Both the position numbers and the translations under genes were made by a program. The notes below the pieces were generated by a model. That model was not told the origin of the DNA. It was given only the letters and a program-made list of their open reading frames with translations, and did not search any database. Shown here in pieces: positions 1,587 to 17,560 of a stretch of DNA of 64,000 nt. Numbering within the stretch: position 1 is the first letter of the stretch; each line of letters starts with the position of its first letter. The DNA is from Squalus acanthias (lineage: Eukaryota): the NCBI GenBank assembly GCA_030390025.1, contig CM059432.1, positions 38,318,001-38,382,000 on the forward strand, given 5' to 3'.

Positions 1587-2250
1587 GTTCCTCCGCGACA
1601 CCCTGGCCCACTCCTCTATCACCCCCAACACCCCCTCCTGTTCCCACGGCACTTTCCCGTGAAATGCAACACCTGCCCTTTTACCTCCTCCTTTTCCACC
1701 GTCCAGGGCCCCAAACACTCCGTCCAGGTTAAACAGCGATGTACTTGTACTTCTTGCAATTTAGTATACTGTATTCGCTGCTCACGGTGAGGTCTCCTCT
1801 ACACTGGGGAGGCCAAACACAGATTGGGTGACCGCTTTGCGGAACACCTCCGTTCAGTCCGCAAGCGTGACCCCGAGCTTCCGGTCGCCTGTCACTTTAA
1901 TTCTCCGCTCCACTCCCACTCTGATCTCTCTGTCGTCAGCCTCCTACACTGTTCCAATGAAGCTCAACGTAAGCTCGAGGAACAGCACCTCATCTTTCCA
2001 TTAGGCACTTTACAGCCTTCTGGAGTCAATATCGGGTTGAACAATTTCAGATCATAACCTCGGCCCCCATTTTTTCAGACAGCAGCTGTTCATGATTCTG
2101 CTATTCCCATTTACACCTCTTCTAAACCCATCTTTTTTTTATTTACTTGTCCCATTACCATCTCCTTTTGCGTTGCACCATCATCCCTTTTGACATTTAA
2201 TCTCTCCTGCCTTCCACCCTATCATAGACCTTCCCTTTTGTTCTTTCCTC
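1587..2250 (+). mobile_element. Penelope-like element 3' part (GIY-YIG remnant), split by the provirus; continues at 14992-15145
   Basis: CTSCNLVYCIRC...GDRFAEHLRSV...GTLQPSGVN. Sequence resumes after the provirus and matches the uninterrupted paralogue at ~15330-15700 (minus). Confidence 0.9.
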
Positions 2251-3916
2251 TGTAAGGGTTTCTGAACCTGTGGGATTCGTGTGGCTCTGTGCAGCCTGGA
2301 TGCTAGTGCGGGTTTAGGCCTTGTTGCCTGTTCTGGTCTCCAGCCAGTCTGGGAGCACTAGACACCTGTGAGTGGTTCGACCCACTCGCCCTTACGGTTC
2401 TGACACTGGACTTAGATGCGAGAGCAGTAATGGAGAGAAAACTCAGGTAGACCCGGTTGAATGGTACGAAATGGAAAATCTTTATTGCATATTATTCAAG
2501 ATTACGAAATACATGTCATAAGCACAGATTAATGACAGTACAATCTTACACGCAGTTATGTAACTAATTTCAGGGAAACGAGGAATGAACGACACATCGT
2601 AAATGGGGGCACACATTACAATTATCCTTAAAAAACTTAAACCCTCCCCTATCAATACCTGCTCTAAACTAGACTTGTAGGATCGAGACTCATGCTCACC
2701 ACTCGTGATAACTCGGAGAATTCCGAAAACTCTGATCGGATGTTTTTCACCGCAGCACCTGATCACCCACGTGTTGATCAGGGGTCTCTGTACCCCACTT
2801 GTTTACTCGTTTCTGCTCCGGCTAGCAGGCTGGACCGTCTGCTGTCATGAAGATCTGTGTTGTCCTCGGAGTTCCGACACGACTCGAAAAATAGTCTTCC
2901 TGTGCCCTCACACCGGTTCGATAAAATTCGAAGAATAGTCTTCCGATGCCAGTTCTGTAAAACTCAAAGGTGGTCTTCCTGGGCAAGGAAAGTGTCTATA
3001 CGACCTACAGGCGCGTCCGGAGCTTACTGACCGTGGCGATACGTATGGTCTTCTTCTCTTCTCATCTCATCTCATCTCATCTCATCTCATCTCGGGCCTT
3101 CGGTTCCAACACCGTTTACCGACTTCTCGGGATGGTGCGCCCGTTTCAAGGCTTCACAGCCCGGTTCCACACAGATCTTCGCGGCAAGCCACGAGGCAGA
3201 TCCTGGCGGATCGTAAAGTTCAACAGTCTTTCAAGCTGCAAGAGGCAGAGACACGAGGCAAGCGGCAAGAGGCAGGAGAATAAGAGAAAGATGGACGGTT
3301 GTAGCTTGCAGTTATAGTGCAAAACTCTTCCTTTCCCGCCCAACCTTAATGTCTTTTCTTTTGTTAGGGTTTGGCGCTCAAATTTCTTGTATAGGGTGAT
3401 CTCCGTTTTAATGGGTTTCGGGGATATTCGTAACTGTCTGAGTACCTGTTAATACTTCTCCCATTGTGTAATCGGTCGGTATTCTCCCTGGAGGGGTTTT
3501 GGGGCTTCCAAATGTTCTCTGTAACTACCCGCTAACGGCTCTCTCATCGTAGAGTCGTGGGGATTTTGCATATTAATGTCTTTGGATGGGTTCTTGATCA
3601 CTTGGTACAATAGCCCTTATTCGCACCTGGGAGACCGATTTCAGTATTTATGTGTATACTGCAAACCCATGATGTCTCGTGTATTATCTTAAATGTACTG
3701 AGTCTTGATCGATCTCGCACAAATGTTTATTGGAACGCCATCTTGTCTGCTTGTCGAAAAGTCTAGAATGTTCTGCCACGAGGCGTGGCGGCCATTTTAC
3801 AGGCTGCTTGTGTCCACTTTGAAAACCTGACAGCATTCTGCTGAAATAAAGCTGTTTGAACGAAACTATGTGTTTTCTCCTTATTTATAAAATCGTGATA
3901 TATTGCGAATTCTACA
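2251..3916 (-). repeat. 3' LTR (1666 bp)
   Basis: Copy of 13333-14987; preceded on minus by purine-rich ACAGGAGGGAC. Confidence 0.95.
2481..2486 (-). terminator. Candidate poly(A) signal AATAAA in 3' LTR
   Basis: Plus strand TTTATT, 230 bp from the LTR end; copy at 13557-13562. Confidence 0.55.
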
Positions 3917-3928
3917 GTCCCTCCTGTT
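3917..3928 (-). promoter_or_regulatory. Polypurine tract (short)
   Basis: Minus strand AACAGGAGGGAC immediately before the TG of the 3' LTR. Confidence 0.65.
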
Positions 3929-4371
3929 GATGCGAATAACTCCGCTTATCGTATCAAAAATATTGTGGTGAGCAATATTATCTCGATTTCTCCAGATCTA
4001 GAAAATTAATCCCCATAACTTAAACTATCTAGGGTCTTTGCGTCGTCCTTATTTCCCAGGAAAAATCACATTCTTATAACACTGCAGGCATTATTTGCCT
4101 TTAAACTTACACCACTTGTTTTCCTTCCAGGCGTAACCAGGCCGATGCCTCTCGTATCACCTGTATATTCACTTTTTTTTTTATTTAGGGAAAGGAAAAA
4201 CAAAACAAAACCAAACAATCATCTTCAACAACAACACCATCACCAAAAATAATCAAAACCAACTCTTAAACATGTCGAGTTCCAAACGTAATTACAGTTT
4301 CTGAAAAAATCACGATCGATTACAACACTTCCGAGGCGCACGTGGCAAACGGGAGTGATGTCATTTTCCGA

Positions 4372-6883
4372 TTACACGGTGCTTTCGTCGTGCACGCGCA
4401 CATAACGTTCTCGCCACTCTCCCGTGTTTTCGTTCTTGGTGAGGCGTTTGCCTCTCTTACAATGTACGACCAATAAGTATACCACAATAAACACTTGGCA
4501 TACAACTAAAATGTGGGAGGCTATTCTAATCCAGGACGGCACTTCAATGTTGGTGAACAGATTCCACCACGGTGGAATTACTATGTCCAGAATGTCTGTC
4601 CCTATTTCGACAGTTTTCTGCTCTAGTGTGTAAAAATGTTTTTGTGACACCGCGACGGCTTTTAAAAGCTTGGTGAGGTGTTCAGGGAGAGGGGGAATGA
4701 GGTATCCGAAATGCGCGACGAATCGCTGCAGGTCGGTGAAGTTCTCTTTTACGGTGAGATGAACCGTGGATGGTTCAGGGATTGGGACAATTTGCTGTTG
4801 TGCTACTTGAACTTCCGCCCTGGGTTTGAAACAGAAACTGCTGTCACTCACCGGACACCGGCTACGGTTTCCATGCCGGTAGTGTTGCGCTGCAGTGGTA
4901 ACACAATATGTTCCACCCCCGATGTATGCTACCTGCGGAGGCACATGATCTTGTGCCATTGCCTCCATGGTGCAATTCATGGACTTGGCGCCAGCCGTTC
5001 TGAACCCGCACTGTGGTGTATAAAAAGGCATTCAAGTGCTGGGGACACAGTATTATGTGTGCTCCCCTGCCACGACAACCAGAGAGATCTGTACCTGTCA
5101 TCGTTTGCTCCCAGCGGATGACGTAGGGTGGAACCGCTGCATAGCGAATGTGGGCTCCCCCCTGAATGACACCAATGTTCTCTACCCGATACACCGGGGC
5201 GGGCTTTGCTGTGTCGCCCAAAACCGGCATACGTAATACTATACCCATGATAGTATGGTTTGATCATCCGCAGTCCACGGGGACTGGGTATGCTTCTGAA
5301 GCTAGCCTGAGCTGGCACGGGCTTAATGCGTTCTGAAAAGGGTGGAGCGCCCGCAGGTGTTTGTTACTTATCCAGGACGGGACCAAACCTTGTTTTAAAT
5401 CCTCCAAATTACTGCGGCCCTCGCCCAGTAACCACGCCCCGTAAAGCACGCACACCTCGTTCTGCGCAGCTTGATCGGATGCATTCCGATCTTCCCTAAT
5501 CAGGGCATTTACCGTTCTCGCGTGTTTCTCTAGTTCAGCTATTATTTCTTTTAAATGGAGAGTCATGGCTTGGTCCTCGTGTAAACCCAACCCAACCACC
5601 TTATTTTCATCTGTGAGAATGTCTTTTAATTGCGTTTTTAAGCCATTAATCTGGGTCTGCAGCTCCACGCTACCTAGAGCATTGACCACAGATGTACCTG
5701 TGTTGAAAGCAGTGAACGCGTCGTTCACAACACCCCTTCTTTGCCTCCCCACCTGATCAAAGACTTCATGTGGTGCGGTGTACAAACTTGTTTTATCAAT
5801 TTCCGCAAAATCGAATTCGTAAAATTGTCTGAACATCTTGGTCAACAGGACCTGATATAACTGTTCCGTCTTTTTGGGGCACCACTCTGGTAACCGTACC
5901 TCGGTGAGATTTAAAATCACCGAGGCCACCGCGTAATGTACCCCCTGAAATAGTATCTGGTCTGTGGGGACCAGTACCAAACCATTCCCGGGTCCCTTAC
6001 TGGTTTTAGGGCACCCTTCTTCCTTAGCTAGGACCACCGGAATCGTGGGCGGGGCTTTGCGTGGGCACGTAATGAGTTCAGTGGCATTTACTGGGATCGG
6101 GGAGAATGGGGCCCCGCACCCCCTGGTACTCGCATCCCACCTCATCCCCTGTCCGTTATCCTGCCATTGATTAATGAAAAATATGGAGATGCCTTTGGGG
6201 CAAACGTACTTTGACCCCCACATACATACATAGATTCCCTCATCCAGTTCCCACCATTTGTCCCAACAGACTCTCACTTGTCCGTTTGTCCCCGTAATTG
6301 TCCGATGGGTATTATTACCCAGTCGTTCCCACTCGACCGAAGAGTTTCTCATGTTCTTGCTCAGCTTTCGCAGCCACCACCATCGGCTCAATGGGACATT
6401 CCCACTACAAGTCAAACAAATCCGTTTGCCGACGGTGACGCTGATCCTGGGTGCGATGATCCTTACTTTGGGGCACAGTAAAGAAGTCTCTTGGTAGGCA
6501 AACCCCGATGTGCTGGAATACTCCGTTGAGTTCGTTCCCAGCCATCCTGGCCACCTTCCCTTGTGGAAATAGGTGGTGGTCTCCTCTGCCTCCCGTCTTC
6601 CGGTCCCATCCACCGCGATGGGGACCGTGTCCCCGGAACATCCGAACACCACGACATCCTTGGTGCGGCCTCGATAGGCCAATCCACATCCGATTGCCGC
6701 GAGCAATACTAGAATTCGTTCCATCCTTCCTTGGTTCCTGTGATCAGATAGAATGAGGTAGCCAGCCTCGCAAGAGTCTCTGGCTTTTGTGAAGGGTGAG
6801 CGGGTCCCCTGACCTCGCCTCACGTAAGCTTCAATGTTCGCTGGATAAACTTTAACTAATCCTATCTCTAAAACTCCCATCAT
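4372..6883 (-). pseudogene. env: Env, class I F-like fusion glycoprotein with N-terminal Ig-like domain; one stop and one frameshift
   Basis: Signal peptide MERILVLLAAIGCGLA from ATG 6724. Furin site RQRR 5735-5746 followed by a fusion-peptide-like stretch and heptad repeat, a Cys-rich region, and a TM helix at ~4460-4535. ORFs 5264-6883 and 4862-5248 are in frame across TGA 5264-5266. Removing one A from 5022-5026 joins ORF 4372-5031, giving ~783 aa from 6724. Confidence 0.88.
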
Positions 6884-7025
6884 TTTACCTCCTTAAACAA
6901 AATTAAAACTATCGACTTAAACCAATTTAAAACTATAACCTCATTCTTAACCTTAAACTATAAACCTAGAAATTTATCCTAAACTTATAAACTGTACAGC
7001 GCCGCCCGTTCCCAGGGCGGCCCCT

Positions 7026-10000
7026 TTAAATTCTGAAAAGGCTGCCGCGAGCTCTTCCCGACGGTGGGAGGGCATTGACCCCTCCCTTTGATCTGCCGCA
7101 GCCTGTTGCTGCTGCGCTGGGACTGGGCTCTTCCTGGGCTGCCTTAACCTTGAGTCTACGCCTTGGGACAGTCTGGGGACTTGACCATACCTTCCTGGGC
7201 TGGGGTATCCGACCTGACCTACGGAGAGTTACCGGGGGCAGGAATCCCAGGACCGACGGACCGGGTTCCGAGACTTCCACCGTGGCGACCTGTGGTCCTA
7301 CCACAGTCGCTGGCTCCGCCTCCCCTGGCTCCGTCTCCCTGACCTCGGGACTTGCAGCTTGTGGCACCGCCCTGCTCGGCCCAGCAGGCGGCCCTTCACT
7401 CGCAGTCCCTACCTCCCCCGAGGGCGGGACGTTCAAGGCGGGCGGCTCGGGCTCTGAGGCTTCCACCATCACGCCCTGTGGTCCCACAGCGGCTGGCTCC
7501 GCCTCCCCTGGCTCCTCCCCCCTGTGTTCGGGACCTGCAGCTTCGGTTTCCACCCTGTGTGGATCTCTATCTGCAGCCCCTGTCCCCCCTATACCTGAAT
7601 CGGGGGCGACCCTTTCGTCCTCCGATTCCAGCTCTTCCTCGTCACTACCTTCACTATCCTCATCTTCGTCGAGCTCCTCGAACTCTCCCTCATCTGACTC
7701 CCAACCCCACAAAAATGTTTCACAATTTTCCAGGATGTCCCCTTCCCTGATGCAAGCTGCTTTGCCTGCCTGTGTGCCCTGTGGTCCTACCTGGGGCTGC
7801 GAGTCCCCACTCGCAGGTTTTGCCCCTGTGGTTTTCCCTTGTGCACCTGGCTTGTACAGTTTGCACTGGTTTACGTGGAACCACTTAGTGCGCCGAGGTA
7901 CCTTTACGGCGTATACCATGGGACTCGCCTTATCTACAATGTTGTAGGGTCCCATATACAGTGGTTCCAGACTCCCTACTCTGGCGCAGTTTCTGACCAT
8001 GACCTGGTCTCCTACTTCCCACTCCCGCGTTTTGCGGGGTTCCAGCAACAGGCGATTGCCCTGATGCTGCCTTCCCATGTTCCCAGCCGCCTGCTCATAC
8101 ACCTGCTTCAGGCGCTCCAAGAGGGTCTCGGCGAACTTGTCCCTGCTTATCTCTTGGAGCTGACCCTCAGTGAGCACCGGCGCTAGCACATGGGTGGGGG
8201 TTCGCATGATCCTCCCAGTCATCACCTCGTGCGGGGAATACCCCGTACTTTTCGACTGACTGGCCCGGACCCCCATGAGGACTAAAGGCAGAACTTCCGC
8301 CCATTTTTGGGGCGAGTTCCTAGTCTCTTTCCTCAATTTCTCCTTCAGGGTCCGGTTCATGCGTTCAACAATCCCGGATGACTGGGGATTGTGTGCTACG
8401 TGCCATTTCCCTTCAATGCCCAAAAGCATGAGGGTGTTCTGCATCACCTGGCCGGTGAAATGACTCCCTTGGTCTGACTCCACAAAACGGGGGAGTCCCC
8501 ACCGCGAGAACACTTCCCTGACCAAGATTTTTGCAGTACCCAGTGCCGTAGCTGTTCGACAGGGGAAGGCTTCCACCCATTTGGAAAACACATCCACCAA
8601 GACGAGGCAGTATTTATAGCCTCCCTGGGTGGTGGGCAGGGGCCCTATATAGTCGATCTGTATCGACTGCCATGGTCCCTCTACCCTCCTGACGTGCCCC
8701 ATGGGCACTTTCCTTTTCTGGGGGTCTGGGTTGTTTGCAGCGCACACGAGACAGCTTGCACAGAACTCGCGGACCTGTTCCCTGAGCCCCGGCCACCATC
8801 CCGCTTGCTCTACCCGTTGCCAGGTAACCTCGGGCCCGGGGTGCCCTGCCCCTGGTCCCTCGTGAGCCAACTGGAGGAATTCCCTCCTGTGCTGCTGCGG
8901 CACAACCCACTGCTCCTCGCGGTACAGCATGCCTTCCTTAACGGAGAGGGTTGCCGTACTGTACGGACCCTCTACCTGCTTCCCCTCAGCAATGGTTTTG
9001 AGGACCGCTTTTAGGGCGGGATCCTGGTTCTGGACGGTCTTAAGGTCTCGGGGCAATGCTACCCTGGTGTTCCCGGGATTCCCGTCCCTGCCTTGGATCG
9101 CTGCCATGGGTCTGGGCCCATAGGGGTCCCAGAAAATGCCGTTGCGGGCACCTTCCCTGGCTAGCGCATCCGCCTGCTGGTTGCCCTCCCCACGGGGCTC
9201 TGTGGAGGAGTGAGCTTTCACCTTATGGATGAAAATCTCTCCTTCCTCCCCTACTGCTGCTAAGATCTTTTCCAGCAAGGGCTTCACCGTTAAAGGTCGC
9301 CCGTCCGCGGAGGTGTATCCACGGCGGGACCAAATGGCCAGGTATTCCGTACACGAATTGCATGTGAACATACTGTCCGAGCAAATCGTGTATGGGGTTG
9401 GGAAAATGTCTGGGTGGGTAACGACGTACACCACTGCAGACAGCTCAGCCTGCTGCGCGCTCATGGTGCTAGGGAGCTTGATCGCCAGGGCAAGGTTTGC
9501 CGCGGGGTCATAAACTCCACACCTTGTGAGTCGTTCGCCAGCAGATACTGTGCTGGAACCATCAACATAAATCTCGCGCCCAGTGGGATGTATCCTGGCC
9601 CGCAAACCTATGTTGACTTCCCACACCCCTTCCACCGAACACCGGTGGGCTGTACCGGGGTATACCAAATTGGCCGCAAGCCTGGGCTCGCAAAGACCTT
9701 TAACTCTAAGATCCATCTGGGAAAGAAGAAGGGTCCAGCGCGCAATACGCGCGCTGCTTACGGTCCCATCTTTAATCCTCCCATCTAGAAGCATCTTAGT
9801 TGGTGTGTGATGGGTGAGAAGAGTGATGGGAGAGAGCCCTGTGAAGATCGCTGATCTTTTCACAGCTCAATGCGTGGCTAAAAGGTGCCTTTCGCAATTG
9901 GAGAAACTTCTCTCCACATCCGTTAACACCCTGGATGAATAGACAACCGGCCTCAGCTTGCCGTGGCGCTCTTGGAGCAGCACAGCGCTCAAGCTGTCCC

Positions 10001-11522
10001 CGCTGGCAGCTACCTCCAGGAAAAACTCCTTCCCCCCATCTATGGCCCCTAAAGCTGGCGCGGTCTGCAGGTCCCTTTTTAACTTCTCGAAGGCTGCTTG
10101 GCAGCCCTCGTCCCAAGACCACTCCACTCCCTTATGGAGGAGTCGGAGCAGCGGCGCCGCTGTGGCCGCATAGTCTTCGATAAAATCCCTGCAGTAACCG
10201 GTCAGTCCCAAGAAGGACCTCACACCCCTTATGGTGTTGGGAATCGGTAACTCTTGCACCGACTCCCTCCTAGCTTTATCTATGGCTCTTTCCCCAGCGC
10301 GAATGGTCAGCCCCAAGAATTTTACTTCCTGCTGACCGATACGTGCTTTCTTAGGGTTTACTTTAAAACCCTTTCTCACTAGCAGCTCCAATAACTCGTC
10401 CAGCAGTGGTCCATGCTCCTCCCTTGAGTCCGTAAATAGGAGCAAATCATCCACGTACTGCACTATCTGATTGGGCTGACTAAACTCCTTTAAACTTCCT
10501 GCCATACACTGATGGAAAATACTGGGGCTATTGTGGAAACCCTGTGGCAGACAGTTCCATGTGTACTGTTGTCCTTTGAAAGTAAAGGCAAACTTGTACT
10601 GGTCCTCTCGCCGCAGCGGGATGGACCAAAAACCGTTCGAGATATCCAGCACCGTGAACGTGGTCGCGGACGCTGGGATACTCCCTATTAGGTCAGCAAC
10701 TGCTGCTACCGTGGGCGCGCAGGCGGGAATGTTACTGTTAAGGACTCTGTAGTCCACCGTGGCCCTCCACGAATTATCTGGCTTCCTAACCGGCCATAAT
10801 GGGGAGTTCACGTGTGTGGCTATCGGCCTCAACACGCCCTGCTGCACCAAGGAGGACATTGCTGTCTCCATATCGGGTTCTGCTTCTTTGGGGAAGTTAT
10901 ACTGCTTTTGGGGCCGGGTCATGGGGTCCCCATCTACGCTGACCTCAAACCCGGTAACCCTCCCACAATCGTGCTTGTGGGTTGCAAACGCGTGCATATT
11001 ATCTGACACGTACGTTTGCATGTCCGTTGGGACATCCGCGACCATAAGCCCGAGGTCGTAGCCTCCGGAAGGCTTCATGGTACACAGGACCCCTGTTTCT
11101 TCCTCCCCCGGAATTACCACTACCTCGCCGTCTTCACTCTTAGCCCCCCAGAGACAGTGATTTCTGAGGTCCACGAGGATCCCGTGCCCTGATAGGAGAT
11201 CGGACCCGAGGATACCTCTCCCACCCCCCTCCTGCCATTCCATCAGTATGCACTTCCACTTGATGTGGAGTGCTCCTAAACGAATGGATAGCGGAAGGGA
11301 GAATGCGCCAGCCTGTTCTTTTCCCGTGAACCCCGCTAATATGAATGGGACCTTGGTGGATAGCGGTGAGTCAAAAGGGCTATCTGTATGAATCACGGTG
11401 CAAGAAGCTCCCGTGTCCAACAAATAACTACCCTTCTGTTTCTCTACCTCCATTTCCACCAGGGGTCGCTTCCACGCATCATAGCTGAGCGGACACAGGT
11501 AGACGGGCTGCGCGGGCTCTTG
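7026..11522 (-). pseudogene. pol: Pol: protease, RT, degenerate RNase H (tether), RNase H, integrase and ~270-aa acidic/Pro-rich tail; one premature stop
   Basis: LLDTGAS and ILGSD (PR); LPQGFHNSP and YVDD (RT); EVAAS...ERHLLA (tether); YVDGS..AEL..SDS..KAH..GNQQAD (RNase H, ~9146-9572); HHCC, DYIGPLP, SDQGSHF, VERMNRTLK, GPY (IN). ORFs 9867-11459 and 7026-9863 share a frame, split by TGA at 9867-9869 (H*AVKR, probably W). Confidence 0.92.
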
Positions 11523-13328
11523 TCATTGGGTACTATTAGACGGGCCTGTGGCACCTACGGGGCCGGTAGCAACCGTCACTTTTCCATGCGCACTCATGAG
11601 GTTACGCATGGCTCCCAACACTGTTTCGATCTCGTCGGGAGGGATGGGTGCACTAGCTTCCCTATCAGAGACAGGCATCTGGGCTCGGGCTGCGGGATTT
11701 TTATCCCTGGAATCCTTCCAAGGGTTCCTGCAGTTCTTGCGCCAGTGCCCTGTCTTCCCACACCCGTAACAAGCATTACTTGCCTGCGGGGTGCGGTTAC
11801 CCTCCTGATGCCACTCCTTCTGAGCCGGGGCTGCGGGTCGTACCTCATGTACTTTTCCCTTAAGGGGACGTGTTCCCATACCCCTGATATTACGGTACCC
11901 TACCGTGAGTCGATTTAGGACCAACTCCTCTGTAGTGGCGGGGTCAGTGGGATCAAACCACGCTTTTGCCTGCTCTCTGACGGCTGGCAAACTGTTGGCT
12001 ACTATACACCTGAGCCAATGAGTTAAACCGATGCCTGCCACAGCGTCGCGCTCTGGTGCACCCGGGCAGCTGCGCTGGTATACTGGCCACAGCCTGTCGG
12101 CGAAAACCTTCGGGGGTTCTCCCTCCATTTGCACTGTCTGTCCCACTCTAACAAACGGACCTTCATCGTCCGTCCCCAGTACTTCTAGGACCTCATTCCT
12201 TAGTGCCTCATAGGTCTTGGTTCCCCTCTTGCTCTCGTCCGAGAGACACTGAAGGATCGAACTACCCAATGAGAATAGCAGCATCTTTGCTGTTTCCCCA
12301 TCGTCGCAGCCGTTAATGGCTGCGGTTTGCTCTATCTCCCTAAAATGTACGGAAGGGTCGTCTGACTCGGCCAGCTTCCGTACGTGACTGATCATAACCC
12401 TCAGCTGGTGTGAGCTGTGAGGCAACACAAGCTGGTTGAGGAGATTCCCTTGTTCCCCATCGTCTCTGTTCGGGCCCCTTTTGATACCCGTGACCGGACA
12501 CAACGGTCCCGGTTCCACTTCTACCTCAGTGGGCTCTTTCGTTTCTTCTACCACTTTCTCCCTTACCCAGGTTTCCGAATAGCTGGGTGGCGCGGAGGGC
12601 GTAGTGGCCAATACTTCCTCTGCTTTGTTCGGTGGGAATTTCTGAAACTCCTCATCCGCTAGCGGCTGGTGTGCTGACGGACTGATAAGGCACACCATGC
12701 CGTGCGCTTTGTTCACGGCCCTTTTAAGGTGCTCTATTTCCTTTTGGCAGACGCTATGATCGGCCCCCTGAAACTTATCCTCAAGGGCCATCTTATATGC
12801 CGCCCTAACCCCCGTTAAGCTCTCTTCCTGGGCTTTTATTTGGGCAGCTTGGCGGGCACATCGTTCCTTTAGTCTGCCCTCACTTAACTTTGCCTCAGTG
12901 ACTTGGCACTCGAGGTAATCTATTTTTGCTTTATGGTGGCTGGTGACTACCTGGCGTTCTTGGTGCAACGCATTTAAATTCTTAATGAGCAACTGCCCCC
13001 CAGTGACCTTCTCGTCCATTTCCACCTCTAAATGCCTGATCCGAGCTGCTTGCGATGTAATGACCTGGTTCGAAATTTGGACTTGTCTTTTATAGCACAT
13101 TAACCAGACCGCTTTCTCCACTGTCTTTTTGTGTTCCTTGCTATCTGTCCACCTCTCGGCTGCCTCTAGTGGACACTTATCCGCTAGCAGGTCACTTATC
13201 CATTTCTTAGTTAAATTTACTTTTCCGAACACATAATCTGCTATTTTCTCTTGCATGACATTTCGTACATTCATACCAAAGTCTAACAAACTACCCTCTC
13301 GCTGCCAGTGTCCTGCCGCGGTCGCCAT
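11523..13328 (-). CDS. gag: Gag, 601 aa (coiled-coil N-terminal half, PSAPPSY late domain, capsid-like region, one CCHC zinc knuckle)
   Basis: Intact ORF right after the 5' LTR. CYGCGKTGHWRKNC at 11730-11771; PSAPPSY at 12579-12599. Confidence 0.9.
   Translation of the reverse strand: MATAAGHWQREGSLLDFGMNVRNVMQEKIADYVFGKVNLTKKWISDLLADKCPLEAAERWTDSKEHKKTVEKAVWLMCYKRQVQISNQVITSQAARIRHLEVEMDEKVTGGQLLIKNLNALHQERQVVTSHHKAKIDYLECQVTEAKLSEGRLKERCARQAAQIKAQEESLTGVRAAYKMALEDKFQGADHSVCQKEIEHLKRAVNKAHGMVCLISPSAHQPLADEEFQKFPPNKAEEVLATTPSAPPSYSETWVREKVVEETKEPTEVEVEPGPLCPVTGIKRGPNRDDGEQGNLLNQLVLPHSSHQLRVMISHVRKLAESDDPSVHFREIEQTAAINGCDDGETAKMLLFSLGSSILQCLSDESKRGTKTYEALRNEVLEVLGTDDEGPFVRVGQTVQMEGEPPKVFADRLWPVYQRSCPGAPERDAVAGIGLTHWLRCIVANSLPAVREQAKAWFDPTDPATTEELVLNRLTVGYRNIRGMGTRPLKGKVHEVRPAAPAQKEWHQEGNRTPQASNACYGCGKTGHWRKNCRNPWKDSRDKNPAARAQMPVSDREASAPIPPDEIETVLGAMRNLMSAHGKVTVATGPVGATGPSNSTQ
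13310..13327 (-). promoter_or_regulatory. Primer binding site, tRNA-Arg(UCG) type
   Basis: Minus strand TGGCGACCGCGGCAGGAC. The plus strand GTCCTGCCGCGGTCGCCA matches, as I recall it, the 3' 18 nt including CCA of vertebrate tRNA-Arg(TCG). Confidence 0.85.
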
Positions 13329-13332
13329 TTTC

Positions 13333-14987
13333 TGTAAGGGTTTCTGGACCTGTGTGGCTTCTGTGCTCAGCCTGGATGCTAGTGCGGGTTTAGGCCTTGT
13401 TGCCTGTTCTGGTCTCCAGCCAGTCTGGGAGCACTAGACACCTGTGGGTGGTTCGACCCACTCACCCTTACGGTTCTGACACTGGACTTAGATGCGAGAG
13501 CAGTAATGGAGAGAAAACTCAGGTAGACCCGGTTGAATGGTACGAAATGGAAAATCTTTATTGCATATTATTCAAGATTACGAAATACATGTCATAAGCA
13601 CAGATTAATGACAGTACAATCTTACACGCAGTTATGTAACTAATTTCAGGGAAACGAGGAATGAACGACACATCGTAAATGGGGGCACACATTACAATTA
13701 TCCTTAAAAAACTTAAACCCTCCCCTATCAATACCTGCTCTAAACTAGACTTGTAGGATCGAGACTCATGCTCACCACTCGTGATAACTCGGAGAATTCC
13801 GAAAACTCTGATCGGATGTTTTTCACCGCAGCACCTGATCACCCACGTGTTGATCAGGGGTCTCTGTACCCCACTTGTTTACTCGTTTCTGCTCCGGCTA
13901 GCAGGCTGGACCGTCTGCTGTCATGAAGATCTGTGTTGTCCTCGGAGTTCCGACACGACTCGAAAAATAGTCTTCCTGTGCCCTCACACCGGTTCGATAA
14001 AATTCGAAGAATAGTCTTCCGATGCCAGTTCTGTAAAACTCAAAGAAGGTCTTCCTGGGCAAGGAAAGTGTCTATACGACCTACAGGCGCGGTCGGAGCT
14101 TACTGACCGTGGCGATACGTATGGTCTTCTTCTCTTCTCATCTCATCTCATCTCATCTCATCTCGGGCCTTCGGTTCCAACATTGTTTACCGACTTCTCG
14201 GGATGGTGCGCCCGTTTCAAGGCTTCACAGCCCGGTTCCACACAGATCTTCGCGGCAAGCCACGAGGCAGATCCTGGCGGATCGTAAAGTTCAACAGTCT
14301 TTCAAGCTGCAAGAGGCAGAGACACGAGGCAAGCGGCAAGAGGCAGGAGAATAAGAGAAAGATGGACGGTTGTAGCTTGCAGTTATAGTGCAAAACTCTT
14401 CCTTTCCCGCCCAACCTTAATGTCTTTTCTTTTGTTAGGGTTTGGCGCTCAAATTTCTTGTATAGGGTGATCTCCGTTTTAATGGGTTTCGGGGATACTC
14501 GTAACTGTCTGAGTACCTGTTAATACTTCTCCCATTGTGTAATCAGTCGGTATTCTCCCTGGAGGGGTTTTGGGGCTTCCAAATGTTCTCTGTAACTACC
14601 CGCTAACGGCTCTCTCATCGTAGAGTCGTGGGGATTTTGCATATTAATGTCTTTGGATGGGTTCTTGATCACTTGGTACAATAGCCCTTATTCGCACCTG
14701 GGAGACCGATTTCAGTATTTATGTGTATACTGCAAACCCATGATGTCGCGTGTATTATCTTAAATGTACTGAGTCTTGATCGATCTCGCACAAATGTTTA
14801 TTGGAACGCCATCTTGTCTGCTTGTCGAAAAGTCTAGAATGTTCTGCCACGAGGCGTGGCGGCCATTTTACAGGCTGCTTGTGTCCACTTTGAAAACCTG
14901 ACAGCATTCTGCTGAAATAAAGCTGTTTGAACGAAACTATGTGTTTTCTCCTTATTTATAAAATCGTGATATATTGCGAATTCTACA
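13333..14987 (-). repeat. 5' LTR (1655 bp)
   Basis: About 99% identical by eye to 2251-3916; reads TGTAGAA...CCTTACA on minus; followed 5 nt later by the PBS. Confidence 0.95.
14382..14412 (-). promoter_or_regulatory. Candidate LTR promoter: GC box GGGCGG plus TATAAC
   Basis: Minus strand GGGCGG (14407-14412) about 20 nt upstream of TATAAC (14382-14387); same in 3' LTR at 3311-3341. Confidence 0.5.
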
Positions 14988-15304: not shown

Positions 15305-17560
15305 AAAGAAAAATACTGAGAATGCTGGAAATCTGAAATAAAAACAGAAATGCTGGAAATATTCAGCAGGTCAGGCAGCATCTGTGGAGAGAGAAACAGA
15401 GTTAATGTTTCAGGTCAATTACCTTTCGACAGAACTGGAAAAAGTTAGAGATGTAACAGATTTTAAGCAAATACAGAGGCAGGGATGGGAGGAAAGAACA
15501 AAAGGGAAGGTCTGTGATAGGGTGGAAGGCAGGAGTAATTAAAAGACAAAAGGTATGATTCTATAAAGCAAAAGGAGATGGTAATGGGACAAGTAAAGAA
15601 ACAAAAGATGGGTCTAGAAGTGGTGTAAATGGGAATGGCAGAATCATCAGCAGCTGTCATCTGAAAAAATAGGGGCAGAGGTTATGGTCTGAAATTGTTG
15701 AACTCGATGTTGAGTCCAGAAGGCTGTAAAGTACCGAATGGAAAACTCGAGCTGTTCCTCGAGCTTACATTGAGCTTCGTTGGAATAGCGTAAGAGGCCG
15801 AGAACAGAGAGGTCAGAGTGGGAATGGAGCGGAGAATTAAAGTGATAGGTGACCGAAAGCTCGGGGTCACACTTGCGGACTGAACGGAGGTGTTCCGCAA
15901 AGCGGTCACCCAATCTGCGTTTGGTCTCCCCAGTATAGAGGCGATTGCAAGGTGAGCAGCGAATACAGTATACTAAATTGCAAGAAGTACAAGTAAATCG
16001 CCGTTTCACCTGGAAGGGGTGTTTGGGGCCCTGGACGGTGGGAAGGGAGGAGATAAAAGGGCAGGTGTTGCCTCTCCTGTGCTTGCACGGGAAAGTGCCG
16101 TGGGAAGGGGAGGTAATTGAGGAGTGGACCAGGGAGTCGCAGAGGGAGCGGTCCCTTCGGAATGCTAAAAGGGGTGGGATGGGGAAGGTGTGTTTGGTGG
16201 TGGGATCATGCTGGAGGTGACGGAAATGGCGGAGGATGATCCATTGAATTTGTAGGCTGGTGGGGTGAAAGGTGAGGACATGGGGGGGTCCTATCTTGGT
16301 TTTGGGAGGGAGGGGATGGGGTGAGAGCAGGAAATGGAATGGACACAGTCGAGCACCATGTCAACCACGGTAGAGGGGATTGCTGGGATGAGGAAAAAGG
16401 AAGACATATCAGAAGACCTAGTATGGAAGGTGGCATCGTCAGAACAGATGTGACGGAGAGGGAGAAACTGGGAGAATGGAATAGAGTCCTTACAGGAGGC
16501 GGGGTGGGAAGAAGTGTAGTCCAGGTAGCTGTAGGAGTCAGTGGGCTTATAGTGAATGTTTGTCAATAGCCTAACCCCAGAAATGGAGACAGAGAAGTCG
16601 AGGAAGGGAAGGGAAGAGTCAGAGATGGATCATGTGAAGTGAGGGAAGGGTGGAAATTGGAAGCAAAGTGAATGAAATTTTCTAGTTCAGGGCGAGAGCA
16701 GGAAACAGCACCAATACAGTCATCAATGTACCGGAAAAAGAGGTGAGGGAGGGGACCTGAGTAGGAATGGAACAAAGAATGTTCCACATATCCTACGAAA
16801 AGGCAGGCATAGCTAGGACCATGTGGGTTCCCATAGCAACACCTTTTATTTGGAGGAAGTGAGTGGAGTCAAAGGAGAAGTTGTTCAATGTGTGAACAAG
16901 TTCAGCCAGGTGGAGGAGGGTGCTGGTGAATGGGGACTGGTTGGGCCTCTGTTCAAGGAAGAAGCGGAGCGCCCTCAGGCCGTCCTGGTGGGGGTGGAGG
17001 TGTAGAGGAATTGGACATCCATGATGAAAAGGAGATGATTGGGGCCAGGAAACGAGAAACTGTTAAAGTGGCAGAGGGCTTCGGAAGAGTCGCGGATGTG
17101 GGTGGGAAAAGATTGGACAAGGGAAGAAAAAATAGCATCAAGATAGGAAGAAATTAGTTCCGTGGGGCAAGAACAGGCTGAAACGATGGTCTACCAGGGC
17201 AGTCCTGTTTGTGGATCTTGGGAAGGAGGTAGAAGCGGGCAGTGCGGGGTTGGGGGACTATGAGGTTGGCGGCCGTGGAAGGAAGATCTCCAGAGGAGAA
17301 GAGGTAAGTGGCAGTCTTGGAAACGATGGTTTGATGTTCGGTAGTGGGGTCATGGTCCACGGGGAGGTAGGAGGAGGTGTCAGAGAGTTGGCGTTCAGCC
17401 TCCGCAAGGTAAAGGTCGGTTCGCCAAACAACAACAGCGTCACCCTTGTCAGTAGGTTTGAGGACAATGTTAGGGTTGGATCTGAGAGAATGGAGTGCTG
17501 CAAGTTCAGTTGAAGTGAGTGAGGGGAGCAGAGAAATTGTGACGGCTGATGTCACGCCGG
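15305..17560 (-). mobile_element. Penelope-like element, degenerate RT plus GIY-YIG endonuclease
   Basis: Fragments KPTDKGDAVVV, YLLPKIHK, FRYIDDC, HYKPTDS, VYCIRC..YTGETKR with frameshifts. Confidence 0.9.

Follow-up and report, generated by a model that had tools for sequence, protein, structure and literature searches.

The fusion (F) proteins of paramyxoviruses and pneumoviruses need a separate attachment protein. Foamy virus Env, in the available portion of its published description, combines an F-like scaffold with a built-in receptor-binding domain and has no second protein; that domain follows the heptad repeat C (HRC) helix, precedes the furin site, and was described as adopting a previously unidentified fold (PMC11468914). 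Lokiretroviral Envs, as presented in the accessible part of their description, consist of a signal peptide, basic cleavage site, fusion peptide, coiled coil, and membrane anchor, and match the Pfam model PF00523 (E 2.2e-7), a hallmark; the Env model given there names neither an immunoglobulin (Ig) domain nor a receptor-binding domain (Wang and Han 2021, PMC7947760). The host list in the abstract of that paper omits cartilaginous fishes, and in the supplement, so far as it was available, the screened cartilaginous-fish genomes are without the asterisk borne by other species (the meaning of the mark is our reading; PMC7947760). Here, we describe a provirus in a 64,000-nucleotide stretch of the Squalus acanthias genome (contig CM059432.1, positions 38,318,001 to 38,382,000; hereafter "the window"), whose env gene encodes a predicted Ig domain ahead of a predicted F-like body. 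This domain may well be the receptor-binding head of the protein.

A predicted immunoglobulin fold in the Env surface subunit

The first reading frame of env (5264-6883 on the minus strand, 539 codons) was translated, and its residues 138-237 correspond exactly to window positions 6173-6472. An original prediction, made from the sequence alone, had proposed that this stretch of the surface subunit (SU) is an Ig domain lying between the signal peptide and an F2-like part, a placement that agrees with the hydrophobic start at M54 on one side and the RQRR motif (residues 380-383) on the other. The residues on which that proposal was built are all present: cysteines at 137, 156, 159, 206, 220, and 228, tryptophans at 168-170, and DEGIYVC at 214-220, with C159 and C220 spaced 61 residues apart (ISVTVGKRICLTC spans residues 147-159). 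C159, W170, and C220 reproduce the arrangement typical of the immunoglobulin superfamily (IgSF), in which B- and F-strand cysteines lie about 55-75 residues apart with a C-strand tryptophan between them, and DEGIYVC fits the D-x-G-x-Y-x-C motif of the E-F turn and F strand. Across the six-frame translation of the window, the motif C-x(8-15)-W-x(30-60)-D-x-G-x-Y-x-C occurs at this site only, as two overlapping matches of the regular expression that begin at C156 and C159. Residues C156, C159, W170, C206, Y218, C220, and C228 are invariant in a five-sequence alignment of relatives (54-73% identity), C137 is present in four of the five, and the glycosylation sequon at N190 is invariant in all six sequences of an alignment restricted to the Ig stretch. 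Judging from strand positions, the additional cysteines probably form a B-E bond (156-206) and an A-G bond (137-228). The original prediction had named these same pairs as possible extra bonds.

Profile searches pointed in the same direction. The Pfam model Ig_3 (PF13927) matched the domain alone (E 0.011) and five of the six members of the Ig-only alignment (best E 3.9e-4); the domain alone scores 16.7 bits against a curated cut-off of 30, and every member falls below the cut-off. When the Ig-only profile was compared with all Protein Data Bank (PDB) sequences, seven of the nine matches at E ≤ 1 were IgSF proteins, namely the IgV domain of CRTAM (twice, E 0.0075 and 0.019), DIP (twice), OBCAM, and neurotrimin (twice), and the CRTAM alignment extended from strand A through strand G. 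A single-sequence search yielded JAM-A domain 2 at E 0.16, and the ten best family-bearing matches in the ESM Atlas all belonged to Ig families or the Ig clan (scores 0.91-0.94).

Predicted structure agreed as well. In an AlphaFold2 model of SU residues 73-383, built from a 12-row alignment with a mean predicted local distance difference test (pLDDT) score of 45.9, model residues 67-150 (Env 139-222; pLDDT 60-81) were the sole confident part; they contained strands A, B, C, C', D, E, and F, with strand G at 233-237, while the N-terminal segment 73-136 scored below 50. The original prediction had suggested a search with such a model, and the Ig beta-sandwich appeared in it: Foldseek matched the model to PDB entries with probability 1.00 (best E 6.6e-3), the top rows being shark VNAR, basigin, and antibody V domains. 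VIA, a Foldseek-independent search of 48,161 chains, gave a best match with Z 7.7 over 85 aligned residues (model 63-156; root-mean-square deviation 2.6 A). Among its 50 listed matches, every chain named in its description was an Ig domain (basigin, CD79b, IgNAR V, titin, obscurin, NCAM2, neuroplastin, T cell receptor, single-chain variable fragment), and the others were chains of antibody complexes. Against predicted viral structures (BFVD), Foldseek returned 0 matches at E ≤ 0.001, and the rows it did return are not meaningful.

Could a viral glycoprotein segment rich in cysteine and tryptophan have spelled out an Ig motif without adopting the fold? All of the sequence scores lie under curated thresholds, and the structural Z falls within the range that VIA calls common, as such a coincidence would lead one to expect. 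Nevertheless, five kinds of test (ESM Atlas, PDB profile, Pfam, Foldseek, and VIA) concur, their alignments reach from strand A to strand G, the framework residues do not vary between species or between copies, and the motif arose in 0 of 100 base shuffles of the window. We therefore regard chance resemblance as very improbable and an Ig fold, on these concordant weak tests, as well supported and very likely. According to the models, the domain is an Ig fold of I-set/V-like type with eight predicted strands and a C159-C220 core pair packed on W170.

An F-like body by predicted structure

For the remainder of the protein, we modeled a sister copy whose env frame is open (836 codons, 783 from M54), with an alignment of 30 rows that included diverged env lineages of the same genome (mean pLDDT 51.4). 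Foldseek returned 91 matches at E ≤ 0.001, and all of those listed were paramyxovirus or pneumovirus F proteins, led by human parainfluenza virus type 3 (hPIV3) F at E 1.5e-8. VIA likewise ranked Langya F (Z 10.0, 314 residues aligned) and hPIV3 F (Z 9.8) highly, and placed foamy virus Env (8RM0) tenth (Z 8.6, 253 residues aligned). The claim of an F-like Env in the original prediction is thus borne out by predicted fold, and we model the Env body as a class I fusion protein folded like paramyxovirus and pneumovirus F. Foamy virus Env models of Pfam found no match at E ≤ 1 in the env sequences scanned.

The same comparison locates the boundary of the F-like part. In the VIA alignment, the start of mature F2 (F residues 22-38) lies opposite model residues 223-226 (Env ~295-298). 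The first F-homologous residue is accordingly predicted at about 296, and residues 73-295, including the Ig domain, therefore constitute a 223-residue N-terminal addition. Behind it, the model places an HRC-like helix directly before the cleavage region; the RQRR motif itself (window 5735-5746) is followed by GVVNDAFTAFNTGTSVVNAL, the F1-like part amounts to 453 residues, and a membrane anchor (WIRIASHILVV...) stands near the end of the open frame of the sister copy. A basic cleavage site followed by a fusion peptide, together with a C-terminal anchor, is the arrangement of F-type proteins. In the window, the portion of env downstream of the first frame encodes F-like domains I and II and heptad repeat B, along with the membrane anchor (4465-4533) and the tail. 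Because a premature stop codon (5264-5266) ends the first frame and the remainder lies in two other frames, env of this copy is broken; its SU is whole.

Conservation among relatives and genomic copies

Public protein records with the Ig stretch came from the skate Rhinoraja longicauda, the sawshark Pristiophorus japonicus, and the whale shark Rhincodon typus, with three records more; these relatives are 47-73% identical and retain the Cys/Trp framework. The start of the signal peptide aligns with the starts of two relatives (P0008 and P0005) in the five-sequence alignment. The 3.7-Gb genome of the window contains the 100-residue Ig stretch at least 150 times at 96-100% identity (5507 candidates, 150 of them scored); 147 of these copies have no stop within the stretch, and many lie in open frames of ~835-860 codons. 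The original prediction had asked whether sister proviruses keep or swap the domain, and both occur: it is kept in skate, sawshark, whale shark, and the genomic copies, and other env lineages carry different N-terminal modules (discussed later). Three sawshark gene models produced automatically (P0006, P0008, and P0017) join env fragments to Niban 1-like, ZFP2-like, and cadherin-related 5-like genes; these look like annotation chimeras, not real fusions.

We compared 30 genomic copies, drawn by their identity in residues 291-383 and not by the Ig stretch, and computed the ratio of nonsynonymous to synonymous differences (pN/pS) from pairwise counts. The ratio was 0.42 for the N-terminal SU segment (residues 73-137; 26 of 30 loci usable), 0.27 for the Ig domain (138-237; 27 usable, three loci under 85% identity having been dropped), 0.26 for residues 238-290 (29 usable), and 0.04 for the beginning of the fusion subunit (384-539; 26 usable). 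Ten signature residues were kept in all 27 copies, with the exception of D214 (26 of 27); G216, Y218, and C220 were intact throughout. From these ratios, the copies appear to have diverged while env, including its Ig domain, was under selection, which indicates divergence by replication and not by decay alone. An earlier estimate (19 of 20 loci, Ig 0.11) was set aside as biased, the loci having been chosen by identity to the Ig stretch.

N-terminal modules of other env lineages and the origin of the Ig domain

An HMMER search showed that one sawshark Env (P0014) matches the window SU in the F2-like part only. When P0014 was compared with the window genome, 104 copies were scored of 7013 candidates (30-46% identity), and the match began at its residue 140 or later in 103 of them (at 94 in the other). 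The env lineages share the linker, the F2-like part (residues 296-383, conserved in all lineages compared), and the fusion subunit, with a common core from ...CP-x-T-x-GP-x-NG-L-V-L... onward. Ahead of this core lie a Pro/Thr-rich linker, with which the connector at residues 238-295 aligns, and N-terminal modules that look unrelated from lineage to lineage.

These modules would nonetheless be related if the Ig domain were an old viral module of all these F-like Envs that has diverged beyond recognition in the sister lineages. Consistent with this, a B-strand-like motif recurs ahead of the linker (VCVQC in P0014, VCITC in the L033 type, and VYLNC in L036), short hhalign alignments of 10, 28, and 17 columns fall on exactly that motif, and by our own count P0014 has a 61-residue spacing from the motif cysteine to ...YVC. 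However, hhalign probabilities between the Ig profile and the N-terminal modules of four other lineages were only 0.4-2.7%, Pfam found no Ig match in the modules scanned, and the L033-type module had no usable match in the ESM Atlas, where the window domain matched Ig families throughout. A common ancestral module, an explanation that concerns origin only, is therefore somewhat unlikely.

Other features of these lineages were recorded as well. In L033, L034, L035, L030, and L032, a basic RLRR motif lies ~75 residues into the open frame, before a Cys-rich N-terminal module; it is reminiscent of the cleaved leader peptide of foamy virus Env, and the window lineage has no such site. In two copies of a further lineage (L025 and L031, contig C2395), a long Pro-Asn dipeptide repeat takes the place of heptad repeat B and the anchor at the membrane-proximal end of env. 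In the diverged Env of L036 (832-3018, minus strand), the membrane-proximal end weakly resembles the Pfam model of baculovirus F (PF12259, E 0.18, far below threshold), which is the kind of env found in insect errantiviruses.

Because the domain has the canonical Cys-Trp-DxGxYxC framework, its sequence suggests an ultimately cellular origin. The original prediction went further and proposed capture of a host domain. A host IgSF donor was not found among 1.84 billion representative proteins, where a HMMER search with SU residues 73-383 returned 11 matches at E ≤ 0.001, all of them env relatives or fragments. A profile search for longer proteins recovered the same six env relatives and no cellular IgSF gene, and word-indexed searches returned 8, 2, and 6 proteins, none of them a cellular IgSF gene. 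In the window genome, the candidates (5507, of which 150 were scored) were taken up by env copies, which number in the thousands, so that weak Ig relatives there fall outside the donor search. The best matches among solved structures (CRTAM, basigin, and IgNAR V) share only 12-21% identity with the domain in structural alignments. Internal duplication of domain II of the Env's own F-like body was also considered as a source and found unsupported (hhalign probability 1.6%).

A candidate receptor-binding head

We propose, with a probability of roughly 0.6, that the Ig domain is a lineage-specific receptor-binding head of the F-like Env. Because this Env has no separate attachment protein, the Ig domain would be its binding head; it would bind a cell-surface molecule of the host, and ligand binding would release the F-like core to refold. 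We infer receptor binding, which the original prediction had offered as one of two roles, from the position of the domain and from the swapping of modules between env lineages: an N-terminal position and differing heads in sister lineages both fit.

Several observations weigh against this proposal. The Env in the window is itself broken. Each test of the Ig fold is weak when taken alone (Pfam 16.7 of 30 bits, PDB profile E no better than 0.0075, Foldseek best E 6.6e-3), a VIA Z under 8 may, according to the tool's own note, reflect merely a common arrangement, and both models are poor (mean pLDDT 45.9 and 51.4) and derive from shallow alignments (12 and 30 rows), the Ig stretch reaching only ~50-59 pLDDT in the whole-Env model. 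PF00523 had no match at E ≤ 1 in any of 19 env sequences (pieces of the window, five public relatives, and twelve env frames of the genome), and a whole-Env hidden Markov model compared with PDB sequences returned coiled-coil noise and no F protein; the likeness to F therefore rests on predicted structure. A stop interrupts the Ig domain in 3 of the 27 usable loci, and as the pairs behind the pN/pS values share ancestry, the ratios are descriptive and carry no probability. Finally, the searches turned up no donor gene.

The inserted domains of foamy virus Env roof the prefusion trimer, in the available part of that report (PMC11468914), which raises the alternative of a structural role, with the Ig domain capping the apex of the F-like trimer or shielding it with glycans. 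As such it would hold the prefusion state, and the task of binding would fall to residues 73-136, to residues 238-295, or to an attachment factor of low specificity. The N190 sequon, present in six of six sequences, would suit a shield, and both flanks are themselves conserved and constrained (pN/pS 0.42 and 0.26). The two roles are, however, compatible, as one foamy virus domain does both, and the wholesale difference of modules across lineages with a common fusion core better fits a determinant of specificity. We consider a cap with binding elsewhere unlikely.

The second role in the original prediction was that of an immune mimic. In that case the domain, copied from a host IgSF gene, would engage an immune receptor or ligand as a decoy and have no part in entry. 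Large DNA viruses do carry captured IgSF genes, and the solved structure that the domain matches best in sequence is the IgV domain of an immune adhesion molecule, CRTAM. That match is nevertheless weak (E 0.0075), and the searches produced no host gene; the mimic role thus found no support. Furthermore, the domain belongs to the same polypeptide as the fusion machine and occupies the site at which binding modules are found in class I fusion proteins, and a decoy that could not be released would be no gain for a small retrovirus. We regard an immune mimic as improbable, more so than a cap.

If the Ig domain is a receptor-binding head, a broader scenario may be entertained, although tentatively. 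The F-like Env would serve as a plug-in platform in a large and recently active radiation of chondrichthyan retroviruses, combining (i) a fusion core, (ii) a flexible linker, and (iii) interchangeable N-terminal heads; the head described here would be an IgSF domain taken from a host cell-surface gene and recognizing a host ligand.

The provirus and its gene layout

The env gene belongs to a provirus with the order LTR-gag-pro-pol-env-LTR (LTR, long terminal repeat; Table 1). The LTR pair, 1.66 kb each, is 98.4% identical (13 mismatches and 7 gap openings in 1669 columns; blastn, 2249-3916 versus 13331-14987). This endogenous retrovirus of a cartilaginous fish is young and very abundant. A 585-base stretch (1666-2250) bordering the 3' LTR on its outer side is an inverted match, at 88.5% identity, to 15489-16071, which sits ~500 bases outside the 5' LTR; the provirus is thus flanked by inverted copies of another repeat.

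Table 1. Features of the provirus in window coordinates; env residues are numbered from the first codon of the open reading frame (ORF) 5264-6883.
Feature	Position	Strand	Basis
Whole provirus, LTR to LTR, ~12.7 kb	2249..14987	-	blastn of both ends
5' LTR	13331..14987	-	blastn
gag ORF, 601 aa, CCHC zinc knuckle; terminal TGA in frame with pro-pol	11523..13328	-	ORF list, Pfam
pro-pol (protease, reverse transcriptase, RNase H, integrase), in gag frame; extra in-frame TGA 9867-9869	7026..11522	-	Pfam, frame check
Putative Env signal peptide, residues 54-72, MERILVLLAAIGCGLAYRG	6668..6724	-	Hydrophobic start at M54 (MERILVLL...), read from sequence
N-terminal SU segment, residues 73-136, conserved GCSG and GRWPGWLG-NST motifs	6476..6667	-	Conservation among relatives
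Predicted Ig-fold domain, residues 137-237, strands A-G, conserved sequon N190	6173..6475	-	Motif, profiles, predicted models
Connector, residues 238-295, Cys- and Pro-containing, between Ig domain and F-like body	5999..6172	-	Low pLDDT
F2-like end of SU, residues 296-383: predicted beta hairpin and HRC-like helix, ends in RQRR	5735..5998	-	Model versus solved F proteins
Start of F1-like (transmembrane) subunit, residues 384-539: fusion peptide, heptad repeat A	5267..5734	-	Frame ends at premature stop
Rest of env in two more frames (ORFs 4862-5248, 4372-5031), frameshift near 5019	4372..5263	-	Comparison with relatives P0007, P0009
3' LTR	2249..3916	-	blastn

Together, gag, pro, and pol (7026-13328, minus strand) make up a single 2100-codon frame broken by two TGA codons. 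The first (11523-11525) stands at the gag/pro boundary, a layout found in read-through retroviruses, and the second, inside pol between the reverse transcriptase (RT) and RNase H parts, is probably a lesion of this copy. Pfam matches in pro-pol included RVT_1 (5e-36), RNase_H (4e-19), and rve (3e-15); RT_RNaseH_2 is followed by RNase_H, an arrangement compatible with a tether plus RNase H. In a search of PDB sequences, the RT was about equally near gammaretroviral (1e-58) and foamy virus (2e-56) enzymes, and the integrase was nearest to that of foamy virus (8e-34). Behind the integrase lies a tail of ~270 residues (7026-7850, minus strand; the C-terminal third of the RNase H-integrase ORF), which is acidic and Pro-rich, contains an internally repeated segment (...EPGEAEPA...VGPQ...SEP.P...), and has no Pfam match.

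Comparison with known systems

With the F proteins of paramyxoviruses and pneumoviruses (hPIV3 F, 1ztm; Langya F, 8tvg; respiratory syncytial virus F, 3rki), the present Env shares the predicted fold of residues ~296-710, including the F2-like hairpin and helix, basic cleavage site, fusion peptide, heptad repeats A and B, domains I and II, and membrane anchor. It differs from them in lacking detectable sequence similarity, in being the product of a retroviral env gene, and in its first 223 residues with the Ig domain, whereas those proteins are without an N-terminal addition and work with an attachment protein. Domains of the cellular IgSF (CRTAM IgV, 4h5s; basigin/CD147; shark IgNAR V; CD79b; titin I-set) have the same framework residues and strand order, but one cysteine pair where the present domain has three likely pairs, and no cellular gene was close enough to be named as donor.

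The SU of gamma-type Envs has an N-terminal, independently folding beta-sandwich receptor-binding domain and a Pro-rich linker, and varies between related viruses. Set side by side with the present Env from such general descriptions, both have an N-terminal head and a Pro-rich linker; the gamma-type binding domain, however, is without the canonical Cys-Trp-DxGxYxC signature and sits on a gamma-type, not an F-like, fusion subunit. The statement in the original prediction that no retroviral Env like this one had been described holds, in our literature searches, for F-like Envs, and has to be read beside the beta-sandwich binding domains known from gamma-type Envs.

Lokiretroviruses, in the accessible part of their description, resemble the present element in the order LTR-gag-pol-env, in their lower-vertebrate hosts, and in an Env akin to the F proteins of Mononegavirales, a kinship that here is one of predicted fold (PMC7947760). 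Their Envs match PF00523, which the present Env misses. The word "immunoglobulin" is absent from the available text of two lokiretrovirus papers; our searches found no paper joining lokiretrovirus and immunoglobulin, an eLife paper on F-type env genes of retrotransposons contained neither "immunoglobulin" nor "receptor-binding", and broader literature searches gave nothing relevant by title. In this literature, part of which was available as partial text, no retroviral Env or F-type fusion protein is described with a host adhesion-type Ig head recognizing a host ligand. The present element extends F-like retroviral Envs, by predicted fold, to cartilaginous fishes, outside the host list published for lokiretroviruses in the portion available, and with thousands of copies, many of them with open env frames, it is a candidate for a recently active vertebrate retrovirus.

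Foamy virus Env gp130 (8RM0) is likewise a retroviral Env with the F fold, which our predicted model matches (VIA Z 8.6). No Pfam foamy virus Env model matches the present protein, and the Gag here has a CCHC knuckle. Foamy virus Env has its binding domain between the HRC helix and the furin site, where the model of the present Env shows no such insertion; here the Ig module precedes the whole F-like body. Foamy virus Env showed that a retrovirus can build a binding domain into an F scaffold, and if the Ig domain is a binding head, the present Env would be a second, independent solution, distinguished by (i) a different place, the N-terminus, (ii) a different fold, that of Ig, and (iii) different heads in sister lineages of one genome. 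These env lineages may thus offer a natural series for the coupling of binding modules to an F-like trigger.

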